Assembly (NCBI GenBank): GCA_024281375.1
Contig: JAJSAD010000044.1
Span: 5,614 to 69,613, forward strand
Length of the DNA stretch: 64,000 nt
Direction of reading: 5' to 3'
Source of the DNA: Alphaproteobacteria bacterium
Lineage (GTDB): Bacteria > Pseudomonadota > Alphaproteobacteria > Caedimonadales > UBA9215
Part shown: positions 3,977 to 27,928 of the stretch, piece by piece
Numbering within the stretch: position 1 is the stretch's first letter
Layout of the letters: the number at the start of each line of letters is the position of its first letter
Program-made: the position numbers and the translations under genes
The notes under the pieces: model-generated
The model's input: the letters and a program-made list of their open reading frames with translations, nothing else
What the model was told of the DNA's origin: nothing
Database searches by the model: none

Positions 3977-4219
3977 AATACTTACTCTCTTTTAACCTGT
4001 GAATCTCAAATCTGCGGGACATCGTTTTCCTCACTTACAAAACGGTAAGCTCCGGGAACGCTGCCCTGGTTTTAAGACCCACAGATTAAAATATAGTTAG
4101 GTATTACCTAAAGGCTCTTTTAACCTATGGTTCTCAAACGAGATTCTCGCCTTGACAGGGGCTTTTGTCAAGACGACTATAGGGAAGAATTGATATTGAG
4201 AGAAAGAAATATAAAAAAT

Positions 4220-6154
4220 ATGTGTGGTATTACGGGCTTTTGGAATCATAATAAGACGCGATCAGAAGAGGAGCTGCGGTTCATTGTCAAAACAATGGCC
4301 GAGCAAATTCGCCCCCGTGGTCCCGATGATTGTGGGGAGTGGGTCGAGAGTGAACAAGGTCTGGCCTTGGGACATCGTCGCTTGTCTATTGTAGATTTAT
4401 CCCCCGCAGGACACCAACCCATGACCTCAGCGTGCGGGCGATATATCATCATTTATAATGGTGAGATTTATAATGCGCCCGATATAAAAGCGGAGATTTT
4501 AAAAGAGCATTCTCTTTCTTTTCAAGGCACCTCAGATACGGAAGCCCTCCTTGAGGGCTGTGCTCTTTGGGGGGTAAAGGCAACGGTCTCAAAATGTATT
4601 GGTATGTTTGGTTTTGCCCTTTGGGATCGGCGCGACAAAGTCCTGACCCTTGTTAGAGACCGTATGGGTATTAAGCCTCTTTATTGGGGATGGCAAGGAG
4701 AGGGCGCGTCCAAGACCTTCTTTTTTGGATCACAACTCAAGAGTTTTAAACCTCACCCTAGATGGAACCCCCAGATTGATCAAACCATTGTGACATCTTA
4801 TTTACGCTATGGTTATGTACCAGCCCCTCGGAGTATTTATCAGAATATTCATCAACTGGACCCTGGTCATATCTTGACCGTTAACGAATCAGGAACGATA
4901 AATGATGAGGCCTATTGGCGCCTTGAGGACCATGTCACAACCGCGCCCGTGCATAACGACCCAACACAGGCCCTTGATCAACTAGAAGACCTTTTAAAGG
5001 ATGCTGTGGGGCGTCGTATGGTCGCTGATGTGCCCTTGGGGGCTTTCCTATCAGGGGGTATTGATAGCTCCCTTGTGGTGTCCTTGATGCAAGCGCAATC
5101 AACGCGCCCTGTGAAGACTTTTTCCATTGGGTTTGATCAACCAGAATATAATGAGGCTCCCTATGCCAAAGCCATTGCACAGCACTTGGGGACAGATCAC
5201 ACAGAGATGTATGTCCCCGTTGAAGAGGCCGCCGATGTCATTCCTCAAATCCCTGAATTTTATGATGAGCCTTTTGCGGACTCCTCTCAAATTCCAACCT
5301 ATTTAGTCTCGAAAATGGCCCGAGAACATGTCACCGTTTCCTTATCAGGAGATGGGGGTGATGAGTTATTTACGGGCTATAATCGATATTTTTATACGCA
5401 GCAATTATGGGGAAAATTTTCCTGGATGCCAGCACCTTTAAGAAAAGCGATGGCCGCAGGAATTACAACCCTTTCCGAAGAAAGTTGGGACACCCTTGGA
5501 CGCCTGATTCCTGAAAAGCTTCGCCCGAAATACGTGGGGCAAAAAGCCCATAAGGTTGCAAAAATTATGCAACGCCCAACGGAAGAAGGGCTGTACCAAT
5601 CCCTTATTAGTCAGGCTCATACCCCGGAAAAATATTCTCTATCAGCCCAAGAAAACCCTGATTGGGAACACCTCTTAAAGCGAGATGACTTTCCTGGATT
5701 GATCGAGTATATGCAGTACCTCGATATGAAGACCTATTTGCCCAATGACATCCTCACCAAGGTGGATCGGGCGAGCATGGCCGTGAGTCTTGAGGCCCGT
5801 GTTCCTTTACTGGATCACCGTGTTGTTGAGTTCGCAGCAGCCATGCCCTTGAACCTCAAAATCAAGGACAACAAAGCGAAATGGCCCCTGCGTCAGATTT
5901 TAAATCGCTATGTTCCCTCGGAAATGGTTGAGCGTCCTAAGACAGGATTTGGGATTCCCATCCATAATTGGTTGCGAGGGCGCTTAAAAAACTGGGGGGA
6001 AGAGCTGCTGAGTGAGACGTCGTTGCGGGATACTCAAATGCTGAATCCTCATACGGTTCGGTCGTTATGGGAAGGGTATCAAAAGGGTGAAAACCAAGAA
6101 GCCTACAGCCTCTGGACCATGCTTATGCTCCAAGCGTGGCACCGGACAGTCTAG
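4220..6154 (+). CDS. asnB: asparagine synthetase (glutamine-hydrolysing), AsnB/WbpS-like amidotransferase
   Basis: MCGITGFW (Cys2 is the Ntn nucleophile, so the start is ATG 4220, not 4127). HRRLSIVDLS and the PP-loop FLSGGIDSSLVV are present. Confidence 0.9.
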   Translation: MCGITGFWNHNKTRSEEELRFIVKTMAEQIRPRGPDDCGEWVESEQGLALGHRRLSIVDLSPAGHQPMTSACGRYIIIYNGEIYNAPDIKAEILKEHSLSFQGTSDTEALLEGCALWGVKATVSKCIGMFGFALWDRRDKVLTLVRDRMGIKPLYWGWQGEGASKTFFFGSQLKSFKPHPRWNPQIDQTIVTSYLRYGYVPAPRSIYQNIHQLDPGHILTVNESGTINDEAYWRLEDHVTTAPVHNDPTQALDQLEDLLKDAVGRRMVADVPLGAFLSGGIDSSLVVSLMQAQSTRPVKTFSIGFDQPEYNEAPYAKAIAQHLGTDHTEMYVPVEEAADVIPQIPEFYDEPFADSSQIPTYLVSKMAREHVTVSLSGDGGDELFTGYNRYFYTQQLWGKFSWMPAPLRKAMAAGITTLSEESWDTLGRLIPEKLRPKYVGQKAHKVAKIMQRPTEEGLYQSLISQAHTPEKYSLSAQENPDWEHLLKRDDFPGLIEYMQYLDMKTYLPNDILTKVDRASMAVSLEARVPLLDHRVVEFAAAMPLNLKIKDNKAKWPLRQILNRYVPSEMVERPKTGFGIPIHNWLRGRLKNWGEELLSETSLRDTQMLNPHTVRSLWEGYQKGENQEAYSLWTMLMLQAWHRTV

Positions 6155-6253
6155 AGTCATTCCAAAAAATCCCAGACGTCGTCAATCGTTCCTAGATTAT
6201 AAGAGATAGTCGTCGTCCCCTCTTTCCTAGACTGGAACCTTTTTGAATTGACT
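6155..6253 (+). repeat. palindromic MITE/RPE-like element, complete copy a
   Basis: AGTCATTCCAAAAAATCCCAGACGTCGTCAATCGTTCCTAG...CCTAGACTGGAACCTTTTTGAATTGACT. The ends are imperfect inverted repeats. The copy fills the whole gap between the asnB stop (6152-6154) and the convergent dsbA-like stop (6254-6256). Related copies lie at 18481, 19018, 27397 and 27869. Confidence 0.85.
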
Positions 6254-6922
6254 CTAAGTAGAAATCTTATCAGCGATTTTTAAGATCTCATCAAGTTTTT
6301 TTGTGAGGTCTTTTGGCGTGATGCCTTTGTTAATGAGGAGGTTTTTCTCAACGCCGTTAACCTTATAAAAAAGATGAAAGGTTGGGGTGGCTTCGATATC
6401 GATGACTTGTTCGGCATTAAAGCGTTTGGCCATGATAAGCTCTTTTGTATGTTCGCAGGCTCGGGCCGCTTTGCAATCTTCGGGTGAGATACCCAGGATT
6501 TTTGCTAATGTTTCAGGAGGTTTTCCAATCCATTCTTCTTGACGTTCATAAGCAATATCCAAAAGCCCCATCCATTTATCATGGGGTTGTTTAGCCACAA
6601 GGCTCATGTATTCAACGGCTTGATAATCCAAGGGAAAGTGCTTGAAAACCATCTGCACTTTTTTAGTATCAATGTATTTTTCTTTCAGGTTTTGAAAAGC
6701 TTTGTGGTGGAAATTTGCGCAATGAGTACAGTTAATAGACGAGTACTCTACCAACATAATAGGGGCCTCATCGGTGCCTAAAACAATGTCGTCTAGCTCT
6801 GAATAAACCTGGATTTCCTCTATTTTTTGTTCAGAAACGGGTTGCTTTTCCTGTGCGGCATGAAGCGCAAAAGAAGAGAGTGACAGAGTCAGCGCAAGGA
6901 GGAGGGGACGCAATAATATCAT
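6254..6922 (-). CDS. periplasmic DsbA-family thiol:disulfide oxidoreductase
   Basis: Signal peptide MILLRPLLLALTLSLSSFALHA and the thioredoxin CxxC motif SINCTHCANFH. Confidence 0.8.
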   Translation of the reverse strand: MILLRPLLLALTLSLSSFALHAAQEKQPVSEQKIEEIQVYSELDDIVLGTDEAPIMLVEYSSINCTHCANFHHKAFQNLKEKYIDTKKVQMVFKHFPLDYQAVEYMSLVAKQPHDKWMGLLDIAYERQEEWIGKPPETLAKILGISPEDCKAARACEHTKELIMAKRFNAEQVIDIEATPTFHLFYKVNGVEKNLLINKGITPKDLTKKLDEILKIADKIST

Positions 6923-6985
6923 TATATGTAACCAATTTATAAATCATCTTTTAGTATAGGAAAAAGAGCTGTTAAAAATCAACCT

Positions 6986-7525
6986 TTATTTCCCATTGAG
7001 CATACGCTTTAAGACATTATCCTTTAAAATAAGGTGATGGTGTAAGGCCCCTAGAATATGAAGAGAAACGGAAATAGCGATAGCCCAGGCAAATCCCAGA
7101 TGAAGTTGATGACTTATGGCTGCAAATTCATGTTTTTCAAAGAAAGGGGTAATGGTGAAAAGACCGAAAAAAGAGATAGGATGCCCACCAAAACTAGACA
7201 TAATAAAGCCTGAAAAAGGCATTAAGATGATGCAAGTATAAAGAAAAAGGATATTCATATTAGCAAGGCTTGCTTGCCAATTCGGGATACTATCCGGGAG
7301 CTTGGGTTGTTTATTCATCCAGCGCCACATAAGGCGCAGAGGGACGAGGGTCAGGATAATAACGCCAAAGGCTTTGTGTTGGGCGTAGATGAACCACTTT
7401 TGATCCCCATCTTCCATAGATGTCATGATAAAGCCCGCAATAATGATCCCCAGGATAATAATTCCCATCACCCAGTGAAAGTGACGGGTAAGCGATCCAT
7501 ATGAATTTTCAGTATTTTTCAGCAT
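6986..7525 (-). CDS. cytochrome b561 family protein
   Basis: Four predicted TM helices with the conserved His pattern (RHFHWVMG, AQHKAFG, HQLHLGFAW...LHILGALHHH). Confidence 0.8.
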   Translation of the reverse strand: MLKNTENSYGSLTRHFHWVMGIIILGIIIAGFIMTSMEDGDQKWFIYAQHKAFGVIILTLVPLRLMWRWMNKQPKLPDSIPNWQASLANMNILFLYTCIILMPFSGFIMSSFGGHPISFFGLFTITPFFEKHEFAAISHQLHLGFAWAIAISVSLHILGALHHHLILKDNVLKRMLNGK

Positions 7526-7602
7526 GTTTTGAGTCCTGTTTTCTTATTATTTTAAAATAGTTTACTGCAATTATGCTCCTAAGAAAAGGGATGTGGGGTG
7601 AG

Positions 7603-8316
7603 TCATTTTTTTTGTTTTTTCCTCTTGTCATCCCATTTTAAAAATTCCGGATATCGTCGTTCTTTTATGAGAATGTCACGAAATCTTATTAGGGCTCTAG
7701 AGTGCCCTTTCTCGGCGGCAGCTTTAAAGGATTGCTCAGCTTCTTTTGTTGAGTTCTCCTGAGAAAGATAACAACCCAGGGTATATTGTGCCTCTGTGTC
7801 TCCTTGTGCGGCTGATTTTTCAATCCATTTTCTACCTTCTTCCTGTTTTCCTTCTTTAAAAAGAAGACTCGCAAAATTATATTGTGCTCTTGCAATTCCC
7901 TGATGGGCCGCTTTTTCGATGTGATCTCGTGCACCTTTTCGATCTCCTTCCTTGTATAAGATAAGAGCTAAATTATAGTGCGCCCTTGGGTCATCATGCT
8001 GAGCGGCGGCTTTAAAGTATTGTTTAGCCTCTAATAATTTCCCTTCCTTGAATAAAAACTCCCCAATTTCGTTTTCGACTTCTACGCGCTGTGAGTCGGG
8101 TAAGGCTTGAAGAATTTCTTTTATCTCTTCTTCTATTTCCTTTACATCCATTGTCGTTATTTCCTTAACATCAACGACATAGTTGCTAGAGGAGACAAAT
8201 TGAGTAGGGTGGTCATCTGGATTTTCATAGAAGTCGTCATAATTTGTACTTAAAACGTGAGGTGAAAAGAGGCTACATACCCCTAATAGCGTGAGAAATT
8301 GACATTTATTTTTCAT
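7603..8316 (-). CDS. secreted Sel1-repeat (TPR-like) protein
   Basis: Four tandem Sel1-type repeats (AAQHDDPRAHYNLALILYKEG, AAHQGIARAQYNFASLLFKEG, AAQGDTEAQYTLGCYL, AAEKGHSRAL). ATG 8316 (MKNKCQFLTLLGVCSLFS signal) is preferred over TTG 8385. Confidence 0.8.
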   Translation of the reverse strand: MKNKCQFLTLLGVCSLFSPHVLSTNYDDFYENPDDHPTQFVSSSNYVVDVKEITTMDVKEIEEEIKEILQALPDSQRVEVENEIGEFLFKEGKLLEAKQYFKAAAQHDDPRAHYNLALILYKEGDRKGARDHIEKAAHQGIARAQYNFASLLFKEGKQEEGRKWIEKSAAQGDTEAQYTLGCYLSQENSTKEAEQSFKAAAEKGHSRALIRFRDILIKERRYPEFLKWDDKRKKQKK

Positions 8317-8406
8317 AAGTAAAGTCCCTTTTTTTGTTGATTCTAGGGGAAAGGATATATGAAAAATAAAAACACTCAATGGCAAATTTTTATCAAAAGA
8401 GATAAT

Positions 8407-8685
8407 TTAAGAACCTTCTGCTCGTAATTCCTCGGCTGAAAAGAGAGAAATGCCCAGGATGAATTGTGTTATCCCTTCTGGGGTGACGGCTCTGATAAGG
8501 CCATCGTTTCCGATAAATTGACCGATAATATTCTCGGGCCTTGGGATAATATAGGCCGTTGTTGGAGGGGTATTGTGGGGTGTTTCAAAAGAGTCTTCGT
8601 GATTTTCGCCGTCTCTTTGAAAACTAAAGGCAACTAAATCACTGAAAAATAACAAAGAAAAACAAATAGATAGAATGTATTTCAT
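8407..8685 (-). CDS. small secreted hypothetical protein
   Basis: 92-aa ORF with the signal peptide MKYILSICFSLLFFSDLVA. No recognisable domain. Confidence 0.45.
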   Translation of the reverse strand: MKYILSICFSLLFFSDLVAFSFQRDGENHEDSFETPHNTPPTTAYIIPRPENIIGQFIGNDGLIRAVTPEGITQFILGISLFSAEELRAEGS

Positions 8686-8814
8686 AATAACATAACCTCT
8701 TTGTCGTTATTATTTATTGTAGACATGAAATTTGACAATTGTGAAGTTTTTTATTTTTATATTGTTTTTTGACAGATTTGATGTTATGAAGACTGAAAAA
8801 GAGTGGGTATTGTT

Positions 8815-9354
8815 ATGAATTTTTCTTTAAAGAAAACTAAATCTATTTTGTTTGCAATCATATGTTGTTCTTGTTTTACTGTGAAAGCGAGTTGTTTTGA
8901 GGATCCTTGGATTTATTCATTTTATGAAGATGATGATGAGGTGGTGATAAGGCAAACAGATATTTTCACCCCTGAGGAGAGGGAAGAGACAAGAGTTGCG
9001 GAAAGGGCTGAGAAAGAAGCCCAAGAAAATGAGACTCTAGCTCAGAAAGGTCATGCTTATCGTCTTTTAAAGGCTGGAGATTATGAAAAGGCTATTGTTA
9101 ATTATCGTGAGCTTTTAAAAACGCATCATGTTCGAGGGGAAAGAATTGTGTTCTTAAAGAACTGTGCTTATGCTTGTTTTAGAATGGGACAATTTGATTT
9201 ATCATTTGCTTATTATGGGGAGCTTTTAAATACCATCCCTGAGAAACATGCTGTTTTTTTGGTTTTGTTAGACGGTATAAGAAAAAAGGGTAATTTTAGT
9301 AAAGAAACAGTTTCTGCGGCGTGTAGCCAATACTTTTTCACAGATAATTTTTAA
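8815..9354 (+). CDS. secreted TPR-like hypothetical protein
   Basis: Signal-like MNFSLKKTKSILFAIICCSCFTVKA and TPR-like helices (AYRLLKAGDYEKAIVNYRELLK). ATG 8815 is preferred over GTG 8803. Confidence 0.55.
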   Translation: MNFSLKKTKSILFAIICCSCFTVKASCFEDPWIYSFYEDDDEVVIRQTDIFTPEEREETRVAERAEKEAQENETLAQKGHAYRLLKAGDYEKAIVNYRELLKTHHVRGERIVFLKNCAYACFRMGQFDLSFAYYGELLNTIPEKHAVFLVLLDGIRKKGNFSKETVSAACSQYFFTDNF

Positions 9355-9366
9355 GAGGATTTTGAT

Positions 9367-10038
9367 ATGTTTAAAAATATAACCCTTTCTATTTTGATGA
9401 TTTTGATGTGTTCAGGCAAAGGGCAAGCGACATTTCTGACAACTGAGCAAATGGAAGAAGCAAACAATTTATTACGAACCCTCGATACATTAAGTATTGA
9501 AATGTTGAATATTGATCCCGATGTTCAACGTATTTTAATATTTGGTGACGTTCAAGATCCCTTTCACTTTAATCCAATTTCTCCTAATCCTCTCGAAGAA
9601 ATGAAACGGGATGGATCATATGCTTATCAAATGTTACAAGAAGAACGTTTTGAAGAAGCGGGAAAGTGGTATGAAAAGGCGTTATGTTGGACAGGCGATG
9701 TGCCCGCTTCTTATGGTTACAGTGCAGGATATGTTTTTTTAAAGTTGAGGAATTTCGAGAAGTCTGTTTATTTCTATGACCTCGCGTTCAGAAAAAATCC
9801 TATAAAAGTTGGAAGCGCCCTTACCAATGCGGGTATTGCCTTTTATAACGTGAAAAATTATAAAAAAGCGACCTCCTACTTTCATCAGGCTCTTGTCTTA
9901 AGAGAAAATCTGATCAGGAGAAATACCGCTTATAGAGACAATTTTTTAAAAGCTTTTGGTTTATATCAGGGAAAATCTTATTTAGAGGCCTCAACTCTCT
10001 TTATAAAGATTTTACTTTCTATGGGAGATGATAGCTAA
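9367..10038 (+). CDS. secreted TPR-repeat protein
   Basis: Signal MFKNITLSILMILMCSGKGQA. TPR units YQMLQEERFEEAGKWYEKAL, GYVFLKLRNFEKSVYFYDLAFRKNP and AGIAFYNVKNYKKATSYFHQAL. Confidence 0.65.
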   Translation: MFKNITLSILMILMCSGKGQATFLTTEQMEEANNLLRTLDTLSIEMLNIDPDVQRILIFGDVQDPFHFNPISPNPLEEMKRDGSYAYQMLQEERFEEAGKWYEKALCWTGDVPASYGYSAGYVFLKLRNFEKSVYFYDLAFRKNPIKVGSALTNAGIAFYNVKNYKKATSYFHQALVLRENLIRRNTAYRDNFLKAFGLYQGKSYLEASTLFIKILLSMGDDS

Positions 10039-10111
10039 AAAATGCCCTAGGAGGGCAGGTGAAAAAGCGTTATACTGTCTATAAAATAAGAATAAAGTAG
10101 ATGGGTTGCCC

Positions 10112-10495
10112 ATGGAACCTCTTGAAGGTCCCCTTAGTCTGATTAAGGAATATTTCCCTGTTTTAATGTTTTTGGTTGTGGCCGTTGCTTTGTCCTGTGT
10201 GATGATCCTTATTGGTTTTTTGCGAGGCCCCCATAAGCCTGATGTTGAAAAGCTCTCGGCTTATGAATGCGGGTTTGAGCCCTTTAGCGATGCCCGTATG
10301 AAGTTCGATGTGCGCTTTTATCTGGTTGCTATTCTCTTTATTATTTTCGATCTTGAAATCGCCTTTTTGTTTCCCTGGTCCATTACCTTAGGACAACAAG
10401 GGAATCTTGGGTTTTGGTCTATGATGATCTTCCTGGGAATTCTAACAGTTGGCTTTATTTATGAATGGAAAAAGGGAGCCTTAGAATGGGAATAA
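10112..10495 (+). CDS. nuoA: NADH-quinone oxidoreductase subunit A
   Basis: ND3/NuoA signature [10 protein letters not shown]...[14 protein letters not shown] 10112 is preferred over TTG 10106. Confidence 0.9.
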
Positions 10496-18480: not shown

Positions 18481-18584
18481 GTAGCCATTTCCAAAAAGTC
18501 CCCAGACGTCGTTATTGCGCTCCTCACCTATAAAAGATAGACCTCGTCGCTGATGCCTAGACTGGAACCTTTTTGGAAAGACTG
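18481..18584 (+). repeat. palindromic MITE/RPE-like element, complete copy b
   Basis: GTAGCCATTTCCAAAAAGTCCCCAGACGTCGTT...GCCTAGACTGGAACCTTTTTGGAAAGACTG. Begins 2 nt after the nuoI stop and has the same arms as copy a. Confidence 0.85.
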
Positions 18585-18620
18585 TATTTTTTTTTAAAAG
18601 TTAACAGATTAACCATTCTG

Positions 18621-18638: not shown

Positions 18639-18995
18639 TTGAGCGATACAAAGGAGAAAGAACAGGTAGGTCCCCGAAAAAACATGACTGACACCCCAGC
18701 AGGAAACAGGAAAAAGATTGCTATAGGTGAGAATGACGTCGCTCTCATCTTTAAAGAAGACGGTCATGTGGACTTATCCTTTCCGGAGATTTCGGATGAA
18801 CATGTTCCAGAGCATGTGATGGCAGCCTTGGCTCTTTCATATGCGGTGGTGGACGAAGAGTTTTTTGCGATTATACAGGATCGCTTTGCTCAGCAAGCTG
18901 CTATGACATTGGAAGAGGAAGCTCGGGAAAGAAATGCAGCAATAAAGAAAGAGGATGGATCGGTTACAACCCCTCATTTGAAAGTTGTTTCATAA
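18639..18995 (+). CDS. hypothetical acidic protein (orphan), bracketed by inverted repeat-element copies
   Basis: 118-aa ORF from TTG 18639. ATG 18684 (MTDTPAGNRKK...) is the more likely start. No recognisable domain. Confidence 0.4.
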   Translation: MSDTKEKEQVGPRKNMTDTPAGNRKKIAIGENDVALIFKEDGHVDLSFPEISDEHVPEHVMAALALSYAVVDEEFFAIIQDRFAQQAAMTLEEEARERNAAIKKEDGSVTTPHLKVVS

Positions 18996-19017
18996 AATAA
19001 TGTTTTTAATTGCACGC

Positions 19018-19081
19018 TAGTCTAGGAAAGAGTGCCGACGACGACCCCCTTGTAGTTTAGGAACGATTGACGACGTCTGAG
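19018..19081 (-). repeat. palindromic MITE/RPE-like element, core-only copy c (inverted orientation)
   Basis: The reverse complement reads CAGACGTCGTCAATCGTTCCTAAACTACAAGGGGGTCGTCGTCGGCACTCTTTCCTAGAC. This matches the core of copy a (CAGACGTCGTCAATCGTTCCTAGATTATAAGAGATAGTCGTCGTCCCCTCTTTCCTAGAC). Confidence 0.8.
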
Positions 19082-19259
19082 GTGCTAGTAAGAACATAGT
19101 ATAAGAATAAACGGCAGGTTACAGGGTACTTACTCAACCTCGAGGGTCTTTATTGAGACCTTACGGGGTTTATTTTTGGCTTTTTGAAATGTCTATAGAT
19201 AAATTCGTGGTATTATTAAAAAGTATATTTTTCTTAAGAAGAGCAGAGTTTAAGTAAGA

Positions 19260-20606
19260 ATGTTAAAACTTTTTTTACAGGCTTCCTTATCAACATTGTG
19301 GGACAGATTGTCTTTGCAAGGTAAATGGCAGCAAGTGGCATCGGCTATTGAGGCGGATGCCCTTATCTGTAAAGACTCCTTAGATGAAGAAACCTTTCTC
19401 CAAAATCCCCTGATGCCTCAAATCATTATAGGGAAAAAAGACTCTGTTTTATCTGAATTCTCGTGTGAGATGTCTACTCTAAATGATATTCCCGTTATTT
19501 TAGAATCTCTTGAGGAGATTATAAGTAAGAGTCAGACCCTCCATAATAAAAAAATTCCCTATAAGAATGATCTTTTCCATACAGTTCTTGCTTTTATTTG
19601 GACAAGAGGGGGATATGTAAAAGCTCATCTTTCTCATACTTTAACATATGGTTATGGCTATCCTTTTATTGAGAAAATTTGTAAAATCATAACGCCGCCG
19701 CCTTGGAAACATCAAAACCAGCAGGCGTCTCCTATCGTCGGTCTTTTGAACCACCTAGAGAAATTGAAGCTTCTTTCATCCCATATCGTGGAAAGGGCAC
19801 ATTCCTGTCCATCTTGCGCAAGTTTGAATATTATCTTGAGAGATGGCTGTTCCCAGTGTCATTCTCCTCATATTAATAAACATAGTATTGTGCATCACTT
19901 CAAGTGTGCCTACCAAGCAGCTCAACATCACTTTATTCGTAATACAGACAAGATCGTTGAGTTTATCTGCCCACACTGTCATGAAGAACTGATTCATTTT
20001 GGTGTTGATTATGATAAACCCGGTGAGGTTTTCTTATGTGAAAACTGTCATTACGAAAGTTCTGATACCGTTGTGGTTGGCAGGTGCTTGAATTGCCAGT
20101 TTAGCTTTCGCTCAAATGAGACAGCTCAATGTGTGATCAAAGATTATATTTTGACGGCCCTTGGTCATCGGGCTGTGTTGAGTTTAAGTTCAGATATTTT
20201 TTCACAGATTGAAGAGCTCGCCGATGAAAAAGACCTCATTTCTTATGCTGAATTCTTGCGACATACAAAGCACTTGTCATCTTATAAAGAACGTTATGGT
20301 CTGGAAGGTTTAATCCTTTCTATACAGATTTCTCAGACCCAAGATGAGGGGCAAACATTAGAAGACGAAACTCTGCTTCGTACCATTGGAAAGACTATTT
20401 TAAGGGATACGCGCGAGGGAGATTTGATCAGTGTGCATGACGGTCATATTTTTATTTTGATGATGGGGGCTCAAGAAGACACTAAAGAACAGGCCATTGA
20501 ACATATTCAACAGCTCATTCATGAAACCTTTAATGAAGATATTTCCGATCACATCATCATTGAGGAATATATGTTAGAGAATGTTCTAAAAGATCAGGAG
20601 CATTAA
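19260..20606 (+). CDS. multi-CxxC zinc-ribbon protein with C-terminal degenerate GGDEF-like domain (I-site retained); candidate c-di-GMP receptor
   Basis: Five CxxC pairs between residues 183 and 279 (CPSC, CSQC, CPHC, CENC, CLNC). The C-terminal ~140 aa align by eye to GGDEF domains (DYILTALGHRAVL ~ D.LTGL.NRR.F). The motif TREGDLISVHDGHIFILM corresponds to RxxD-N5-GGDEF, with RxxD intact and GGDEF replaced by DGHIF. Confidence 0.6.
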   Translation: MLKLFLQASLSTLWDRLSLQGKWQQVASAIEADALICKDSLDEETFLQNPLMPQIIIGKKDSVLSEFSCEMSTLNDIPVILESLEEIISKSQTLHNKKIPYKNDLFHTVLAFIWTRGGYVKAHLSHTLTYGYGYPFIEKICKIITPPPWKHQNQQASPIVGLLNHLEKLKLLSSHIVERAHSCPSCASLNIILRDGCSQCHSPHINKHSIVHHFKCAYQAAQHHFIRNTDKIVEFICPHCHEELIHFGVDYDKPGEVFLCENCHYESSDTVVVGRCLNCQFSFRSNETAQCVIKDYILTALGHRAVLSLSSDIFSQIEELADEKDLISYAEFLRHTKHLSSYKERYGLEGLILSIQISQTQDEGQTLEDETLLRTIGKTILRDTREGDLISVHDGHIFILMMGAQEDTKEQAIEHIQQLIHETFNEDISDHIIIEEYMLENVLKDQEH

Positions 20607-21898
20607 TGGAAACGGCTTATGATTTTTTTACAAACCAAACCACTGACTCCTTTATTAGAAATTACTGGATTGTGGTTTTTGTGGAGATCCCTCGTTTTTT
20701 TATGGGGGGGCTTCTGGTTATTTTCAGTATTCTCTTTTTTAAAAGCAAAGGTCAGACACCTGAAAGGTTAAACCGGATGGGAGCACAGATATTGAAAAAA
20801 GGCGTTAGTATTATTATTGCCATGCATAACGAAGAAGAAGCCATATGCCGAGCCCTTTCTTCTTTAAATGAACTTTGTACAGAGAATAAAACAATTATCG
20901 TCGTTAATGATGGGTCGACAGATGACTCACACAACGTTTGCTTAAGCCTCAAGAAAAAAGGGTTGATCCAACATTATATTTATAATGAATCCAGAGGCGG
21001 GAAGGCTGCTGCCGTTAATTTAGGCATTAGATATGTGAAAACCGATTTTTTTGTTGTGATGGATGCGGATACTTCCTTTGATCGAGATGCCTTAAATATT
21101 GCAGCCGCTTATTTTGAAGATTCCCACGTAGGGGCCGTCGGGGGAAATTTGGCTGTTCGTAATTATAACGATAATTTAATCACACGAACACAACAAATAA
21201 ATTACCTTCTGTCTATTACGCTTGGAAGAATTGTTCGTGATATGCTTGGGTTTTACTTTGTGGCTTCTGGTGCTTTTAGTATGTATAGAACCACAGCTAT
21301 TCATCAGCTCGGCGGCTGGGGATTTGGTCCCGGTGAAGATGCTGATATTGCCATACGCCTGCGCATTGCAGGGTGGACTGTGAGATTTGCTTTTTTTGCT
21401 ACAGGACAAACGGCTGTTCCTGACAGCGCACCAGGACTCATCAAGCAGAGAATGAGGTGGGATCGATCCCTCATTCGATTAAGATATCGCAAATATCTAG
21501 GGCATGTTTTAAATCCTTTTCGAGCTTCGTTTAAACTTCCTCTGGCCCTCAGTTTTTTCGATATTTATTTCTTTACAGCTCTCCATCCTTTTTTATTCGT
21601 TGGGTTTGTCACGGAAAAAGTTGTCTTGTATGGGCCATCAGCACTCCTATTTATCATCACAACTATGTTTTTATTTTTGATTATAGATACCTTTAAAATC
21701 TTAATGGTTTTTGCGTTATTACGTTCTCAATATCATCAATACTCTTTATTGTTGTACGTTCCTTATTATACATTTTATAATATTTATTTTTTACGTTTCG
21801 TAAGACTATTTGCCGTTTGCCATGAACTTATTTTTAGGGGATCTTACAAGGATGATTATGTGCCTAAAAAAGTTAGAGATAAAATAAAAAGATATTAA
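20606..21898 (+). CDS. processive family-2 glycosyltransferase (PgaC/IcaA/NodC/BcsA-class membrane synthase)
   Basis: VNDGSTDDS, GGKAAAVNLG, the DxD motif VVMDADT, GPGEDADI and the QxxRW motif KQRMRWDRS. One N-terminal and several C-terminal TM segments. The start overlaps the upstream stop (TAATG). Confidence 0.85.
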   Translation: METAYDFFTNQTTDSFIRNYWIVVFVEIPRFFMGGLLVIFSILFFKSKGQTPERLNRMGAQILKKGVSIIIAMHNEEEAICRALSSLNELCTENKTIIVVNDGSTDDSHNVCLSLKKKGLIQHYIYNESRGGKAAAVNLGIRYVKTDFFVVMDADTSFDRDALNIAAAYFEDSHVGAVGGNLAVRNYNDNLITRTQQINYLLSITLGRIVRDMLGFYFVASGAFSMYRTTAIHQLGGWGFGPGEDADIAIRLRIAGWTVRFAFFATGQTAVPDSAPGLIKQRMRWDRSLIRLRYRKYLGHVLNPFRASFKLPLALSFFDIYFFTALHPFLFVGFVTEKVVLYGPSALLFIITTMFLFLIIDTFKILMVFALLRSQYHQYSLLLYVPYYTFYNIYFLRFVRLFAVCHELIFRGSYKDDYVPKKVRDKIKRY

Positions 21899-23062
21899 AT
21901 GAAACAGATAAATAATCAAAAAACAGCCTATAGAATTAAACGTGATAAACGGTCGTTCTCACTAAAATTTGGGCGTTACCTCTATCTCTTTGTTATTGCT
22001 CTTCTTTTTCTGTGGATTTTTCACCTAACCTTTTCCTTTTTATATTTATTAGATGGAGACGGTTTTTTGACGGCAGATAGTGAAATTGTTGCTTTTGAGT
22101 ATGACACTTCTCTGGAAACGATCCTTGTTGAGAATGGAGATGACGTTAAACAGGGGCAAGAACTTTTCAGGTATGATTCGTCTGACTATCGATTGCAGTT
22201 GGTTGATCTTCTTTTTAGACAAGTTAATCTGCTACAAGATTTTTCTGAAACGGGCGTGCATTTAAAGAAAATTGATGCCCAAATAGCCAGTACGAAAAAA
22301 TACTTAGGTGTTGCGAAAGGTATTGTGGATAAAATAAAAAAACTTGAAAAAAGGGAGTTGATATCCAATAGGCGTCGAAGCATAGAATACATGCGCTATT
22401 TTGATGCTCTCAAAGAATTTGAGGATTATACGGCGGAAAAGGGCGGTCTTTCTGCCCAGCACCATCAAATTAAGCAGAAATTACAGATGGTTGCAAAAAA
22501 TGTTACACACTTAGTGGATTCTTTTCATGAGGGGGTGGCCCGAGCCCCCATGGATGGTGTCGTTGGTGACTTAGAATTAGAACCAGGCTCTGTTGTTGAA
22601 AAATCTGAGCCTGTTTTGCGGATATTTTCAAATCTCCGTTACCTTCTTGTTTATTTTAAAAGTTCGTCTGTTTCAACAAAATTGGAGGATATTGTGATTG
22701 TTCATATTCCAGGAAAAGGATTTCATTTTGGAACGGTTGTGGACAGGGATCGTGTTGCCTCTTCAATTCCTGAAGAAATAAAACCAAAATTTCGCCCCGC
22801 AGAACGTCGCCGTGCCATGATCGTGATGATGGACCAAAAGGTTTTACGAGCGTCCCCCCTTATGAAGTCAATTCATGTCTACAAACCCATGGGCTTAGAA
22901 TCCCTTGTTGCTTTGTTTGATATTAAACGGGAGCACCACAAGGAATACAAAGCTTTCTTAAAAGAGCGCAAAAAACGTTTCGAAGATGTTCGCTCTAAAC
23001 ACTCACAATCAATGGCCGCCCTACATGATAAAGCCCGTGCTATAAAAACTTTTTCCGATTAA
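21899..23062 (+). CDS. HlyD-family periplasmic adaptor (membrane fusion protein)
   Basis: N-terminal TM helix YLYLFVIALLFLWIFHLTFSFLYLL. Split barrel-sandwich halves (VENGDDVKQGQELFRYD and RAPMDGVVGDLELEPGSVVEKSEPVLRI) flank a long coiled-coil region. The ATG directly abuts the upstream TAA. Confidence 0.8.
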   Translation: MKQINNQKTAYRIKRDKRSFSLKFGRYLYLFVIALLFLWIFHLTFSFLYLLDGDGFLTADSEIVAFEYDTSLETILVENGDDVKQGQELFRYDSSDYRLQLVDLLFRQVNLLQDFSETGVHLKKIDAQIASTKKYLGVAKGIVDKIKKLEKRELISNRRRSIEYMRYFDALKEFEDYTAEKGGLSAQHHQIKQKLQMVAKNVTHLVDSFHEGVARAPMDGVVGDLELEPGSVVEKSEPVLRIFSNLRYLLVYFKSSSVSTKLEDIVIVHIPGKGFHFGTVVDRDRVASSIPEEIKPKFRPAERRRAMIVMMDQKVLRASPLMKSIHVYKPMGLESLVALFDIKREHHKEYKAFLKERKKRFEDVRSKHSQSMAALHDKARAIKTFSD

Positions 23063-23063
23063 A

Positions 23064-23095
23064 GAATAAAAAAGAGGAGAGGGGGCTCCCTCTCC
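23064..23095 (-). terminator. rho-independent terminator (for the minus-strand gene 23138-23713; possibly bidirectional)
   Basis: Perfect 8-bp stem GGAGAGGG/CCCTCTCC (23076-23083/23088-23095) with a 4-nt loop. The A-run on the plus side is a T-run on the minus strand. Confidence 0.6.
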
Positions 23096-23137: not shown

Positions 23138-23713
23138 TTAAGAACCGGCTTCGACTAATTCTAGAGCAGACTCTAATTTTCCGTAATTTTCTTCATTTTG
23201 CATTCTGTCATTAAAGAAGGCTCCCGTTGATTTCGTGTAAAAAACGGGTAATATTTTTGTCAACTCCGACCCTATATTGACTCCAGAGCTTATTTTCTTT
23301 TTTAAGTCTCTGAAATTCATAGGAGCACTTGTAGAACCGTTATTCTGTATCGTAGCAACAATTACTGATTTTGCTGAGCTATGAGAGACAAAGTCTTGAA
23401 TAAGACCTTCAAGGTATGTATCTTCACCAGGATGTAATCTATCTCCCCCTCTTCTTATTTTCAAGATTAAAAATAACTTTTGATTAGAAGCCTTGGCGGC
23501 CGCATCTCCAATATCGTAGGGCCCGTCCATAGTAATCTTACCCTCTTTATTAACGAATTTTGCGAAGCCTTCTTTAAAGGTCTTTACCGCATTATTTTTT
23601 TGGTCATCAAAAAAAATATTTCCAGTATTATCTACAAGCAAAGTTACATCGGGGGCAGCTGACACCGGCACTGACATAGAAAACAGAAAACCAATCAAAA
23701 CGAATAAACGCAT
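23138..23713 (-). CDS. secreted hypothetical protein
   Basis: 191-aa ORF with the signal peptide MRLFVLIGFLFSMSVPVSA. No recognisable domain. Confidence 0.5.
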   Translation of the reverse strand: MRLFVLIGFLFSMSVPVSAAPDVTLLVDNTGNIFFDDQKNNAVKTFKEGFAKFVNKEGKITMDGPYDIGDAAAKASNQKLFLILKIRRGGDRLHPGEDTYLEGLIQDFVSHSSAKSVIVATIQNNGSTSAPMNFRDLKKKISSGVNIGSELTKILPVFYTKSTGAFFNDRMQNEENYGKLESALELVEAGS

Positions 23714-24038: not shown

Positions 24039-24115
24039 GTGCCCGTAGCTCAGTTGGATAGAGCACAGGATTCCTAATCCTGGGGTCGGAAGTTCGAATC
24101 TTCTCGGGCACACCA
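24039..24115 (+). tRNA. tRNA-Arg (anticodon CCT)
   Basis: GTGCCCG/CGGGCAC acceptor stem, D-arm AGCTCAGTTGGATAGAGC, anticodon loop TTCCTAA, T-arm GGAAGTTCGAATCTTCT and an encoded CCA. Confidence 0.9.
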
Positions 24116-24292
24116 CTATTCTCAATAAGTCAAATTCAAAAAAAGGGGCTTTTGCAGCATAAATGAAATATCTAAGACTTTCCTGCCATTTCTGAAGCAT
24201 TACGGGGGTGTCTTTAAAGAAAAACTCACAAATCCCAAAAAAAGGCTTTCCTTTTAAGGCTGTTTTCGCTACAAAGAAGACATCCTAAGAGT

Positions 24293-24463: not shown

Positions 24464-25840
24464 ATGCTTCGTGGTCTTTGTGAGGAAATTAGTCGTCTCA
24501 CCCCCGTCCATCCTTTTGGATTTGTGACCTCTATTGTGGGGAGTATCATTGAGGTGAGTGGCCTTCAAAAGATTGTTTCTGTTGGATCGGTATGCCGCCT
24601 TGAAAATCGAGCAGGCATTTCTTTCCCTTGTGAGGTTGTTGGCTTTAAAAACGACCAAACTCTCGTCATGGGATATGATTCTATTGATGGCCTGGGGCCT
24701 GAGTGCAAAGTCACGTATGAAGGTCACCATAATGTGATCTATCCCCATGAAAGCTGGTTAGGACGCACCCTAGATGGCTTTGGCGTGCCTATTGATTCTA
24801 AAGGGCAATTGCCTTCTGGCCCCCAATCTTATGACCTTAATGCTTCTCCTATTCCAGCCCATAAACGTCGCCTTGTGGAAAATCGCATAGACCTTGGGGT
24901 GCGGGCTATGAATACTTTTACAACCTGTTGTGCGGGACAACGCATGGGGATTTTTGCAGGCTCTGGCGTGGGTAAGTCTATCCTTTTATCGATGCTCGCA
25001 AAATTTTCCAAAGCTGAAACCATTGTCATTGGCCTCATTGGAGAGCGGGGACGTGAAGTCAAAGAATTCATTGAAAAGCACCTTGGGGAAGAGGGCATGG
25101 CAAAAAGCGTTGTGGTTGTTGCGACCTCCGATGAGCCCGCTCTCATGCGTCGCCGTGCCGCGTACACAACCCTATCCATTGCGGAATATTTTAGAGATCA
25201 AGGTAAAGAAGTCCTCTGTTTGATGGATAGTGTGACGCGTTTTGCCATGGCGTTGCGAGAAATTGGCCTTTCTATTGGGGAGCCTCCCACAACAAAGGGC
25301 TACACACCCAATGTGTTTGTAGAGCTTCCCCGGCTTCTTGAGCGTAATGGTCCTGGCAGTGATCTCCACAAACAACACCAGGGCAATATCACAGGGCTTT
25401 TCACTGTTTTGGTGGAGGGAGATGATGATAACGAGCCCATTTCTGATACCACTAGAGGCATTCTTGATGGGCATATTATGTTGGATCGTAAGATTGCGGA
25501 GCGGGGCCGTTATCCAGCCATTAATATCTTGCGCAGTATTTCAAGAACCATGCCTGACTGTAATAATGCCGAGGAATCAGAGCTCATCCAACGGGCAAGA
25601 GAGTACCTTTCCACTTACGATGATATGGAAGAACTTATTCGTCTCGGCGCGTATCGCAAGGGCTCTAACCCCAAGGTCGATGAAGCCATTCAATACTATG
25701 AACAACTGGACCCCTTTATCTCCCAAAGCAAAGATAGACAAATCACTTTTGAAGATGGTTTTGAGACTCTTGCAACGATCTTCGGCTGTCAAGAAAAGGA
25801 AAGTGAAACGACTGAAATCGTCAGCGGATTTGAAAGCTAG
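24464..25840 (+). CDS. fliI: flagellum-specific (type III secretion) ATPase FliI
   Basis: Walker A FAGSGVGKSILL, Walker B VLCLMDSVTRFA and the GSITGLFTVLVEGDD-type motif (GNITGLFTVLVEGDDDNEPI). Confidence 0.9.
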   Translation: MLRGLCEEISRLTPVHPFGFVTSIVGSIIEVSGLQKIVSVGSVCRLENRAGISFPCEVVGFKNDQTLVMGYDSIDGLGPECKVTYEGHHNVIYPHESWLGRTLDGFGVPIDSKGQLPSGPQSYDLNASPIPAHKRRLVENRIDLGVRAMNTFTTCCAGQRMGIFAGSGVGKSILLSMLAKFSKAETIVIGLIGERGREVKEFIEKHLGEEGMAKSVVVVATSDEPALMRRRAAYTTLSIAEYFRDQGKEVLCLMDSVTRFAMALREIGLSIGEPPTTKGYTPNVFVELPRLLERNGPGSDLHKQHQGNITGLFTVLVEGDDDNEPISDTTRGILDGHIMLDRKIAERGRYPAINILRSISRTMPDCNNAEESELIQRAREYLSTYDDMEELIRLGAYRKGSNPKVDEAIQYYEQLDPFISQSKDRQITFEDGFETLATIFGCQEKESETTEIVSGFES

Positions 25841-27709: not shown

Positions 27710-27798
27710 TTACATATCCAAATAAAGTATTGAAACGTTTTTATCCAGAATATTATTCATAATCTTCTGAATGGAAATAAAAAAGTAAGCTGCAGAAG

Positions 27799-27847
27799 TG
27801 GTGTGCTCGAGAAGATTCGAACTTCCGACCCCAGGATTAGAAATCCT
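27799..27847 (-). pseudogene. tRNA-Arg 3' fragment (anticodon stem to CCA; TCT at the anticodon position)
   Basis: The minus strand reads AGGATTTCTAATCCTGGGGTCGGAAGTTCGAATCTTCTCGAGCACACCA. It differs at 2 positions from the same part of tRNA-Arg(CCT) at 24039-24115. No D-arm or 5' acceptor strand lies upstream. Confidence 0.8.
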
Positions 27848-27868
27848 CTTCTCATCACTTCTCTAGTT

Positions 27869-27914
27869 GATTCAAAAGGTTCTAGACGACGTCTGAGACC
27901 TTTTTGAATTGACT
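27869..27914 (+). repeat. MITE/RPE-like element, collapsed copy e (arms only, forms a hairpin)
   Basis: GATTCAAAAGGTTCTAGACGACGTCTGAGACCTTTTTGAATTGACT. The right arm is identical in its last 17 nt to copy a. Confidence 0.75.
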
Positions 27915-27928
27915 ATAAAAGCTTATTA

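Follow-up and report, generated by a model that had tools for sequence, protein, structure and literature searches.

The locus lies in a window of 64,000 nucleotides (the whole stretch of DNA analyzed here) and comprises three ORFs on the forward strand, encoding proteins of 448 (gene 1, 19260-20606), 430 (gene 2, 20606-21898), and 387 amino acids (gene 3, 21899-23062). As the first-pass annotation of this DNA had described, stop and start codons overlap by one base between genes 1 and 2 (TAATG, 20604-20608, forward strand) and follow each other without spacer between genes 2 and 3 (TAA-ATG, 21896-21901, forward strand). A G+C-rich hairpin (GGAGAGGGGGCTCCCTCTCC, 23076-23095, no strand assigned) lies 14 nt past the stop codon of gene 3 and is probably a bidirectional terminator, common to the cassette and to a convergent 191-aa ORF (23138-23713, reverse strand) located between gene 3 and a tRNA-Arg(CCT) gene (24039-24115). 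Two copies of a dispersed repeat of about 85 nt are found just upstream of the cassette (18520-18586, forward strand, and 19015-19085, reverse strand), in line with the position between a repeat element and tRNA-Arg that had been reported for it. The cassette is also more AT-rich than the nuo genes, as previously noted by eye (G+C of 0.377-0.391 vs 0.447-0.486). The low G+C thus holds up but does not set the cassette apart, since at least five other genes of the window have values as low or lower, with a minimum of 0.329. The hint of acquisition drawn from it is therefore weak, although the trio does occur in unrelated contexts in other genomes.

The co-occurrence of the three genes in other genomes, on which the initial reading depended, was indeed observed. 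Among 85 related loci, which come from different alphaproteobacterial lineages, 72 keep this order, and in 72 the regulator gene (the counterpart of gene 1) directly precedes a GT2 gene of the same orientation, in most cases with a stop codon that overlaps the next start codon. An overlap of 1 to 11 nt is possible in 48 of 71 related loci, and the gap between genes 2 and 3 has a median of +2 nt (54 related loci). Same-order trios occur in dozens of genomes and are only 20-60% identical, a recurrence that exceeds what is expected by chance. The flanks of the trio differ among genomes, no conserved fourth gene was found among the 85 related loci, and just 12 of them have genes for GGDEF or EAL proteins close to the cassette.

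Gene 1 (19260-20606, forward strand) encodes a predicted cytoplasmic regulator, with no hydrophobic or transmembrane-like segment found along its 448 aa, whose AlphaFold2 model (mean pLDDT 78.8) has three domains. The first is an alpha/beta domain (aa 1-100, 19559 being the last nucleotide of the stretch that starts at 19260, forward strand), delimited by the secondary structure of the model and by family alignments; the latter show that it is common to the relatives containing a receiver domain, where it is placed after the receiver. The second is a TackOD1 zinc-ribbon module (Pfam PF18551; aa 102-296, 19563-20147, forward strand), matched with an E-value of 1e-35 and a score of 123.5 bits for a cut-off of 32, which substantiates the zinc ribbon recognized in the first reading. 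Its motifs are five CxxC and one HxxC, starting at C183, C197, H213, C237, C260, and C276. These motifs match the published TackOD1 signature (PMC5847659), and all 11 cysteines as well as H213 are invariant in an alignment of 22 family members.

The third domain is a degenerate, catalytically dead GGDEF domain (aa 325-448, 20232-20603, forward strand). The sequence of gene 1 on its own matches Pfam GGDEF_2 at an E-value of only 0.014, and the Pfam GGDEF model PF00990 is absent among its matches up to an E-value of 1. The GGDEF fold initially suggested was nevertheless recovered by two other approaches: among the 50 best PDB matches of the model in Foldseek, almost all are GGDEF domains, with PelD (4eu0) and BcsE (6tj0) among the structural matches, and a family profile of the domain matched at least 30 GGDEF chains (best DosC, E-value 1.3e-8). 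The position of the GG(D/E)EF signature reads DGHIF (20439-20453, forward strand), which amounts to a loss of the catalytic motif, and the family shows no conservation there either. Five residues before this former motif is an RxxD of the type found in I-sites (R385-E-G-D388, 20412-20423, forward strand), which the profile alignment places in register with the motif RSSD-x5-GGDEF of DosC.

The regulator family comprises 2,355 clusters at 50% identity, from which we took 150 representatives at most 50% identical to one another to quantify the conservation of the RxxD. It is the most conserved feature of the C-terminal domain, being present in 127 of 145 representatives: the position of R385 is an arginine in 130 of 145 and that of D388 an aspartate in 137 of 146, while the position of the catalytic motif is unconserved. 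The arginine of helix alpha-3 is kept in 109 of 143 representatives and is replaced by a histidine in the protein of the window (H415), whose I-site may thus be weaker than the family norm. Considering that the RxxD was conserved in an active site that has otherwise decayed, ligand binding is hard to avoid, and we infer that the RxxD of gene 1 binds c-di-GMP. This molecule appears to be made in this organism, as one of the genes of the window (56058-58436) codes for a protoglobin-GGDEF-EAL protein whose GGDEF motif is intact.

The distribution of the RxxD depends on the form of the regulator. Of the short forms that lack a receiver, 16 of 19 have it, compared with 6 of 38 forms with an N-terminal receiver domain (often accompanied by an Hpt gene) and none of the 11 long forms without a receiver. 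Since most receiver forms keep the C-terminal domain without the RxxD (32 of 38, in addition to all of the long forms), this domain would, judging from these comparisons, also have a role that is independent of c-di-GMP. Likewise, this type of module does not seem to be always tied to c-di-GMP, given the presence of the receiver and the loss of the RxxD in most of these relatives. Such losses, the missing secondary arginine at H415, and a tight translational coupling that suggests stoichiometric co-production are what one would expect if the product of gene 1 were a subunit that the synthase strictly needs for its structure or assembly, acting as a co-polymerase or scaffold like PgaD or parts of BcsE, without sensing c-di-GMP here and with an RxxD that is a structural relic or a site for another ligand. 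We regard this as unlikely, because the R and the D are the two best conserved positions of the domain across 145 diverged sequences in an otherwise decayed active site, and because the RxxD was lost precisely where a receiver domain provides an alternative input.

Even less probable is that gene 1 encodes a transcription factor, whose TackOD1 ribbons would bind DNA and control expression in response to c-di-GMP or phosphorylation, without acting on the synthase protein. TackOD1 was defined as an output domain of archaeal response regulators and is similar to a Cys-rich insert in the helicase PriA (PMC5847659), which is found at rank 49 of our Foldseek list; DNA binding is also common among response-regulator output domains. 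However, the authors who defined the domain called its function "obscure" (PMC5847659), the Pfam scan of gene 1 found neither a helix-turn-helix nor any other DNA-binding family, and the position of the regulator directly before a co-oriented GT2 gene in most loci is what is usually seen for components of a single machine.

Gene 2 (20606-21898, forward strand) encodes an inner-membrane GT2 synthase of the processive type, as first annotated: all the motifs named then are present (DGS at aa 102-104, with D102; DAD within VMDADT at 153-155; GED at 243-245; QRMRW at 281-285), and hydrophobic segments (aa 20-46 and 313-374) flank the glycosyltransferase domain. It matches Pfam Glycos_transf_2 (1e-31) and Chitin_synth_2 (28.4 bits for a cut-off of 27). 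Among curated families, PgaC/IcaA scores highest for gene 2, as it does for all 29 relatives tested (NCBIfam PgaC_IcaA, 5e-43 over aa 30-395 of gene 2), but the score of 147.6 bits, against an equivalog cut-off of 422.3, rules out that gene 2 is a PgaC equivalog. Lesser matches include NodC (9e-20), Glyco_transf_21, and CelA (only 2.9e-5), and 25 of the 29 relatives match HpnI. In alignments of the family profile, the similarity to hyaluronan synthase extends through the C-terminal transmembrane region, and BcsA likewise aligns through the membrane part. Taken together, these matches identify gene 2 as a membrane GT2 resembling PgaC, NodC, and hyaluronan and chitin synthases.

Gene 3 (21899-23062, forward strand) encodes, by its family resemblance, an EmrA-like membrane-fusion (periplasmic adaptor) protein. 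A single hydrophobic helix (about aa 26-48, 21974-22042, forward strand) would anchor it in the membrane, and the lipoyl-type matches are split (Biotin_lipoyl at aa 72-93, HlyD_3 at aa 215-253). These two traits of the original description stand, whereas for the long helical hairpin between the lipoyl halves (aa 95-151 and 157-214) the only source is an AlphaFold2 model of low confidence (pLDDT 47). Alone, the protein is under the Pfam gathering score (21.2 vs 22.2) and under the cut-offs of the NCBIfam models RND_mfp (2e-12) and EmrA (2e-11). The family gives a clearer signal: its profile matches EmrA (4tko) at 1.1e-15, and also MexJ, MacA, and HlyD, and 25 of 26 members match both HlyD_3 and HlyD_D23. 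We found no TolC-type or other outer-membrane gene among the scanned ORFs of the window, nor does any such gene recur beside the trio in the other loci. The lack of an outer-membrane component in the cassette, which had been pointed out before, has precedents in BgsBA, which requires a TolC encoded elsewhere (PMC13438883), and in the XcsAB-TolC route proposed from modelling (PMC12430437). While the matches to NodC, HpnI, and Glyco_transf_21, the small-molecule pumps that are the normal partners of EmrA-type adaptors, and a cassette devoid of glycan-modifying or porin genes would suit a GT2 that makes a short oligosaccharide or glycolipid (NodC-like chito-oligosaccharides, or a hopanoid- or ceramide-type glycoconjugate) exported as a small molecule by the adaptor and TolC, we find this improbable since the best and full-length matches are polymer synthases, gene 2 has the QxxRW motif and a C-terminal transmembrane bundle, and the pairs of GT2 and membrane-fusion protein studied so far export polymers.

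Our literature search found no paper describing the trio and no characterized system with such a combination, in agreement with the first-pass annotation, yet several systems share parts of it. In the Pss system of Listeria monocytogenes, the exopolysaccharide operon encodes a dead GGDEF protein, PssE, with an RxxD five residues before the degenerate signature, which is needed to activate the polysaccharide made by the GT2 synthase PssC (PMC4125290). By its published description, PssE is membrane-associated, from a Gram-positive, and lacks a zinc ribbon, with no mention of a membrane-fusion protein; the cassette has a soluble receptor with a TackOD1 module, whose gene opens the operon, whereas the gene for PssE comes last. 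The BgsB/BgsA system for mixed-linkage beta-glucan in Sinorhizobium meliloti is also an alphaproteobacterial pair of membrane GT2 and membrane-fusion protein under c-di-GMP control (PMC13438883; PMC5567048), with no outer-membrane gene in its operon. However, BgsA is cellulose-synthase-like and binds c-di-GMP via its own C-terminal domain, whereas gene 2 ends soon after its last transmembrane segment, its presumed receptor is a separate protein, and the gene order is reversed, with the adaptor last. The proposed XcsA-XcsB(HlyD-like)-TolC route for cyanobacterial cellulose is likewise activated by c-di-GMP (PMC12430437), but XcsA is a BcsA-type synthase with a fused PilZ and has no separate regulator.

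Alg8/Alg44 combine a GT2 with an inner-membrane partner that has a periplasmic part resembling membrane-fusion proteins, and polymerization requires c-di-GMP (PMC4436075). There, a PilZ domain within the adaptor-like protein Alg44 serves as receptor, whereas the Pfam scan of the cassette proteins found no PilZ and the presumed receptor, of the GGDEF type, is a protein of its own; the alginate machinery also needs AlgK, AlgE, AlgX, and others, which are absent from the cassette. The dead GGDEF domains of PelD and BcsE bind c-di-GMP at an RxxD and control a secretion machine, but PelD is a TM-GAF-GGDEF protein whose partner is a GT4, BcsE contains a degenerate receiver along with RecA-like modules, and neither has TackOD1 or is paired with a membrane-fusion protein. 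Finally, the PgaC/IcaA match of gene 2 is collinear across the glycosyltransferase and transmembrane regions, at about one third of the equivalog cut-off, but the cassette lacks PgaD/IcaD, the PgaB deacetylase, and the PgaA porin, and in Escherichia coli c-di-GMP binds PgaC and PgaD directly (PMC4436075).

All the in silico tests named beforehand as potentially refuting gave favorable results, and we consider, with moderate confidence, that the operon is a c-di-GMP-gated and probably TolC-dependent polysaccharide secretion module. The arrangement of receptor, synthase, and adaptor put forward at the outset stands as regards the domains and the trio itself; the binding of c-di-GMP is deduced from conservation, and the relatives with a receiver, mostly devoid of the RxxD, argue against extending it to all of them. 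In the proposed module, the GT2 would polymerize a beta-linked glycan, most likely containing a hexosamine such as GlcNAc given the family resemblance of gene 2, and translocate it across the inner membrane, where the anchored adaptor would probably take it over the periplasm to a TolC-type channel encoded elsewhere. TolC as the channel, the nature of the polymer, and the contact between regulator and synthase are all inferred: the soluble regulator, with its three-zinc TackOD1 and its dead GGDEF domain, would act on the synthase post-translationally. A conserved RxxD beside a decayed catalytic motif has a precedent in PssE, a proven I-site receptor that activates a GT2-dependent exopolysaccharide (PMC4125290). 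The retained RxxD would bind c-di-GMP, such that the polymer would be made only when c-di-GMP is high. In the relatives bearing a receiver, often together with an Hpt gene, the RxxD is mostly lost, and the same machinery would therefore be switched by a phosphorelay instead.

The three genes of the cassette were recovered as plus-strand ORFs of 448, 430 and 387 aa (gene 1, 19260-20606; gene 2, 20606-21898; gene 3, 21899-23062), joined by the fused stop and start codons that the first-pass annotation had described. The stop codon of gene 1 and the ATG of gene 2 overlap by one base on the plus strand (cat-TAA-TGg, 20604-20608), and the TAA of gene 2 directly abuts the ATG of gene 3 (21896-21901). 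The motifs DGS, DAD, GED and QRMRW of gene 2, as well as the hydrophobic segments of genes 2 and 3, also lie where that annotation had placed them. A scan for sigma-70 consensus sequences found no plus-strand site in 18996-19259, and the overall counts were no higher than those of shuffled sequences. After the stop codon of gene 3, a G+C-rich hairpin (23076-23095) faces a convergent ORF of 191 aa (23138-23713, minus strand), which shares it. This ORF has a signal-like hydrophobic N-terminal segment, lacks any family match and is not conserved beside the trio in other genomes.

The soluble regulator encoded by gene 1 matches the Pfam family TackOD1 (PF18551) over aa 102-296 with an E-value of 1e-35 and 123.5 bits, well above the gathering cut-off of 32, which bears out the zinc ribbon proposed earlier. 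The signature is complete, with five CxxC and one HxxC motifs (CPSC183, CSQC197, HFKC213, CPHC237, CENC260 and CLNC276) and 11 conserved cysteines, and the motifs are invariant in 22 relatives. Each monomer is predicted to hold three zinc ions. It agrees with the published description of TackOD1, in which the function of the domain was called obscure (PMC5847659). We found no other account of TackOD1 in the literature searched.

The rest of the protein was analyzed by structure and profile searches. From 22 family sequences, an AF2 model with a mean pLDDT of 78.8 was obtained, in which three domains can be told apart: an N-terminal domain of the alpha/beta type (aa 1-100), then the zinc-ribbon module and finally a C-domain (aa ~325-448) with the topology alpha-beta-alpha-beta-beta-alpha-beta. 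When this model was compared with the PDB using Foldseek, GGDEF domains, including those of PelD (4eu0) and BcsE (6tj0), filled nearly all of the top 50 positions, with marginal E-values (1e-3 to 5e-2), probabilities near 1.0 and target-normalised TM-scores of up to 0.58 on isolated GGDEF domains. Searched alone against Pfam, gene 1 gave a sub-threshold match to GGDEF_2 (aa 368-422, E 0.014). We regard as the decisive test of the predicted GGDEF fold the search of the PDB with a profile of the C-domain built from 23 family members. This profile matches at least 30 GGDEF chains, the best being DosC (E 1.3e-8), and the alignment places 'LRktDlva-kg...' of the family over 'vRSSDyvfrYGGDEF' of DosC. 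Hence, profile and structure searches both support the GGDEF fold that had been claimed for gene 1. The sequence DGHIF aligns where the GG(D/E)EF signature belongs, and the catalytic signature is lost. It is preceded, at a distance of five residues, by R385-E-G-D388, which is the register of an I-site. PssE, whose role as a receptor is proven, is reported to combine this RxxD register with a destroyed signature (PMC4125290).

A word-indexed protein search returned only 9 to 22 relatives of gene 1. The idea that the regulator family is rare was nevertheless rejected, since 1.84 billion representative proteins, searched exhaustively with a profile, yielded 2,355 clusters at E<=1e-3, of which 757 also reach E<=1e-30. 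The 150 top-ranking clusters are all stand-alone proteins, mostly of 420-490 aa, that match nearly the whole profile, and their representatives (pairwise at most 50% identical) were aligned to assess the conservation of the I-site. R385 is kept in 130 of 145 representatives, D388 in 137 of 146 and the complete RxxD in 127 of 145. These two residues are the most conserved positions of the C-domain, and the former GGDEF position has no consensus across the 150 representatives. The RxxD motif of gene 1 thus appears to be under selection. In 109 of 143 representatives there is also a conserved arginine in helix alpha-3, thirty residues past R385, a spacing similar to that of the secondary I-site arginine of PleD. 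Gene 1 of the window has a histidine (His415) at this position, which counts against a fully canonical I-site in this particular protein.

The product of gene 2 carries the GT-A motifs D102, D153AD155, G243ED and Q281RMRW, and has hydrophobic segments on either side of the GT domain (aa 20-46 and 313-374). It matches Glycos_transf_2 (1e-31) in Pfam and lies narrowly above the cut-off of Chitin_synth_2 (28.4 vs 27 bits). Its best curated family in NCBIfam is PgaC/IcaA (TIGR03937, E 5e-43), with which it is collinear over aa 30-395, but its 147.6 bits remain under the equivalog cut-off of 422.3. NodC (9e-20) and CelA (only 2.9e-5) follow, and the 29 relatives of gene 2 that were tested all give the same pattern. 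The family profile aligns with the hyaluronan synthase of a Chlorella virus (7sp7) over positions 124-396, through the C-terminal TM region, with BcsA (4hg6) over positions 25-340, covering GT and TM parts, and also with chitin synthases. Because of these alignments, we class gene 2 as a membrane-embedded, processive-type GT2 of the HexNAc-polymer clade, distinct from PgaC. The previous assignment to processive membrane GT2 enzymes is in agreement with this, on the basis of the motifs, the flanking TM segments and the profile alignments. The TM helices flank the GT domain as they do in translocation-channel synthases, and gene 2 may putatively form such a channel.

The partners of known synthases are missing from the cassette, as the first-pass annotation had indicated for PilZ and for PgaB/PgaA-type proteins. 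BcsA, Alg44 and XcsA have a PilZ domain, whereas the proteins of genes 1-3 have no Pfam match to PilZ at E-values up to 1. PgaC/IcaA systems have PgaD, PgaB and PgaA, whereas none of these (nor IcaD or IcaB) is found in the neighbourhood of the cassette in the window, or is conserved in the other loci. Finally, BgsA is cellulose-synthase-like and has a C-terminal c-di-GMP-binding extension, while gene 2 is far closer to PgaC than to CelA in the above searches (5e-43 vs 2.9e-5) and has no sizeable extension past its last hydrophobic segment.

Gene 3 encodes a protein with a single N-terminal TM anchor (aa 26-48). Taken alone, it is narrowly below the Pfam cut-off of HlyD_3 (21.2 vs 22.2 bits), and its NCBIfam matches to RND_mfp (2e-12) and EmrA (2e-11) are significant yet sub-cut-off. 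The family is clearer: a profile of 26 orthologues matches EmrA (4tko, E 1.1e-15) in two stretches, one with lipoyl and hairpin and one with lipoyl and barrel, and also matches MexJ, MacA and HlyD. HlyD_3 and HlyD_D23 are matched by 25 of these 26 members. Given the single N-terminal anchor and the family matches, gene 3 can be assigned to the EmrA-type adaptors, and its initial description as an MFP holds. The AF2 model of this protein, made from two sequences only (pLDDT 47), is unreliable. We also observed a nearly invariant, family-specific motif, P-E-E-[FI]-x-x-x-F-x-P-x-x-R, at aa 291-303 (window 22769-22807) and in the orthologues. Its residues P291, E293, F298 and R303 fall where the protein aligns with the beta-barrel of MFPs. 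The motif is not known from efflux adaptors, and it might be in contact with the glycan or the synthase.

The first relatives, found by the word-indexed search, lie on contigs with the same trio and different flanks. A scan of one genome per GTDB species identified relatives in 134 species, of which 80 loci were kept. They are nearly all from Alphaproteobacteria, including Thalassospira, Caenispirillum, Breoghania, Roseibium, Bosea, Jannaschia, Hyphomicrobium, Methyloceanibacter and many MAGs, and the exceptions are single MAGs of Legionellales and Glaciecola. The closest locus, in UBA1908, has genes 39%, 59% and 42% identical to genes 1, 2 and 3 of the window. Over the 85 loci compared, the GT2 gene is immediately 3' of the regulator and co-oriented with it in 72, and 5' of it in 2 (Caenispirillum). 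A contig end is too near to decide the order in 5 loci, the MFP is present without GT2 in 4, and both are absent in 2. The MFP gene follows the GT2 gene in at least 54 loci. Co-occurrence of the trio in other genomes, implied by its interpretation as a module, is therefore well established. There is no flank synteny between the window and any related locus, and the receiver-less loci of different genera have nothing in common beyond these three genes. Genes 1 and 2 can be read with a stop/start overlap of 1-11 nt in 48 of 71 loci, and genes 2 and 3 are a median of +2 nt apart, both figures being upper estimates because the choice of start codons favoured short gaps.

Several loci depart from this organization. 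One alphaproteobacterial MAG (locus L012) has two complete regulator-GT2-MFP trios in tandem (2530-6269 and 6451-10190). In four loci (L061, L077, L081 and L085) the MFP comes immediately after a receiver-type regulator and the GT2 is missing (e.g. L077, 6005-14269). In this lineage the cassette either has decayed or is a variant served by a synthase gene at another site. Genes for a porin, GlmU and GlmS come next after the MFP in L061, L077 and L081, and the sequence of L085 ends before that point. UDP-GlcNAc genes beside the cassette were rejected as general evidence for the substrate, since they are confined to this one GT2-less lineage. The Legionellales MAG (L015, 2206-3411) encodes a stand-alone protein with TackOD1 and the C-domain, without RxxD and without adjacent GT2 or MFP, and an MFS transporter is next downstream. 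We also rejected a candidate Rosetta-stone fusion of TackOD1 and GT2, an ORF of 869 aa in a long-read MAG (L030, 6782-9391), because it arises by a frameshift within the C-domain of gene 1. In the normal frame, the stop of gene 1 and the start of gene 2 overlap (ATGA), and what looked like a fusion is due to faulty assembly or to a pseudogene and does not support a joining of the two proteins. Locus L076 is likewise frameshifted.

The regulators fall into three forms that differ in the presence of RxxD. The short, receiver-less form found in the window (~410-520 aa) has the motif in 16 of 19 cases, the form with an N-terminal receiver (~600 aa) in 6 of 38, and a long receiver-less form with a different N-terminal region (~569 aa) in 0 of 11. 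The difference between short and receiver forms has a p-value of 8e-7 (Fisher's exact test), which overstates independence because the sequences are phylogenetically related. In loci of the receiver form, the MFP gene is often followed by an Hpt gene, with histidine kinases encoded in the vicinity. Read most simply, these data suggest that the regulator would take its input from either c-di-GMP or phosphorylation.

The window itself provides some information on the genomic and cellular context. The organism has c-di-GMP turnover, because the window contains a gene for a protoglobin-GGDEF-EAL protein (791 aa, 56058-58436, minus strand) in which the RFGGDEF motif is intact and the I-site reads RQSD. 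This protein, a candidate sensor of oxygen or other gases, may supply the cassette with c-di-GMP or deplete it. Its gene has a G+C content of 0.329, the lowest among the long ORFs of the window. An enrichment of GGDEF/EAL genes next to the cassette was not retained, since they occur in only 12 of 85 loci, mostly of the receiver type, and are suggestive at most. The window also encodes a TLC-family ATP/ADP translocase (40788-42356, plus strand; Pfam 5e-161). Such translocases are typical of obligate intracellular bacteria, and this one points to a host-associated alphaproteobacterium. Other genes encode the flagellar protein FliI (24464-25840), a protoglobin-MCP chemoreceptor (50688-52019, minus strand), LpxC and Nuo proteins. 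No TolC-type gene was found among the window ORFs scanned, which are a part of those in the 64 kb, and none is conserved beside the cassette elsewhere, in line with the earlier remark that the cassette has no outer-membrane component.

The location of the cassette between a repeat element and a tRNA-Arg gene was confirmed. A dispersed repeat of ~85 nt, CCCAGACGTCGTCAATCGTTCCTAGATTATAAGAGATAGTCGTCGTC...CCTAGACTGGAACCTTTTTGAATTGACTCTAA, which may be a REP- or MITE-like element, occurs at 6170-6256 (plus), 18520-18586 (plus), 19015-19085 (minus) and, partially, at 27870-27917 (plus). The second and third copies are inverted and lie upstream of gene 1, flanking an ORF of 118 aa between nuoI and gene 1 (18639-18995) that has no family match. 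On the other side is the gene of tRNA-Arg(CCT) (24039-24115). A 57-nt inverted copy of its 3' part (24061-24117) lies at 27797-27853 on the minus strand, 93% identical, 3.7 kb past the intact tRNA and adjoining a copy of the repeat; it could be a remnant of integration or inversion. An IS4/5-family transposase (DUF4096 and DDE_Tnp_1; 38664-39260, minus strand) adjoins tRNA-Val(GAC) (39473-39547), and a tyrosine recombinase/integrase (Phage_integrase) is encoded at 46418-47371 (minus strand). The cassette is indeed richer in AT than the nuo genes, with a G+C content of 0.377-0.391 (GC3 0.33-0.36) against 0.447-0.486 for nuoE to nuoI upstream. However, this low G+C is real but not distinctive, because other, unrelated genes of the window are as poor or poorer (0.329-0.378). 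Hence, composition was rejected as a sign of horizontal acquisition, and this part of the initial interpretation is weak.

Altogether, the observation is confirmed, and sequence analysis, within its reach, supports the interpretation. The best-supported model is that the cassette would be a minimal synthase-dependent secretion module. The GT2 would polymerise the glycan and translocate it, the EmrA-like adaptor would span the periplasm, probably to an unlinked TolC, and the soluble regulator, on binding c-di-GMP at the I-site, would gate the synthase in the way that PssE gates PssC. A requirement for TolC has been shown genetically for BgsBA (PMC13438883), and a GT2-MFP-TolC arrangement has been proposed for the cyanobacterial XcsAB (PMC12430437). 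PelD, PssE and BcsE are receptors with degenerate GGDEF domains and I-sites, and gene 1 shares with them the fold, the lost signature and RxxD, its binding of c-di-GMP being putative. The components of the cassette are all of known kinds. We found no description of the trio in the literature searched, which did not cover subscription-only papers, and no link there between TackOD1 and any polysaccharide system; the statement that the combination matches no characterised system is consistent with this.

Synthase-dependent exopolysaccharide systems (cellulose, PNAG, alginate, Pel, Pss, MLG) are textbook targets of c-di-GMP, and the receptor solution differs in each of them. The cassette would add another receptor design, in which a soluble protein unites a zinc-ribbon module and a catalytically dead GGDEF domain and is coupled to a synthase and adaptor of minimal composition, and would place TackOD1 in a functional context for the first time. 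Nor is it an oddity, as relatives are present in the genomes of 134 species and the regulator family, large and unstudied, has thousands of clusters. A broader reading, which we put forward tentatively and at somewhat less than an even chance, is that proteins with TackOD1 and a dead GGDEF form a large, unrecognised family of c-di-GMP receptors (at least 757 clusters at E<=1e-30, mostly in Alphaproteobacteria) that dock on and gate a distinct GT2-MFP(-TolC) class, and whose input was repeatedly swapped between a second messenger (I-site kept, no receiver) and a His-Asp phosphorelay (receiver and Hpt, I-site lost). If true, it would provide the first function for the TackOD1 domain and a natural pair of systems in which to study the gating of one synthase by two types of signal. 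The proposed exchange of RxxD for a receiver is testable, as it predicts which orthologues answer to c-di-GMP and which to phosphorylation, and strains of either type are in culture, namely Thalassospira and Caenispirillum for the former and Breoghania and Roseibium for the latter. In the organism of the window, the polymer could matter for a host-associated lifestyle, since the genome carries an ATP/ADP translocase.
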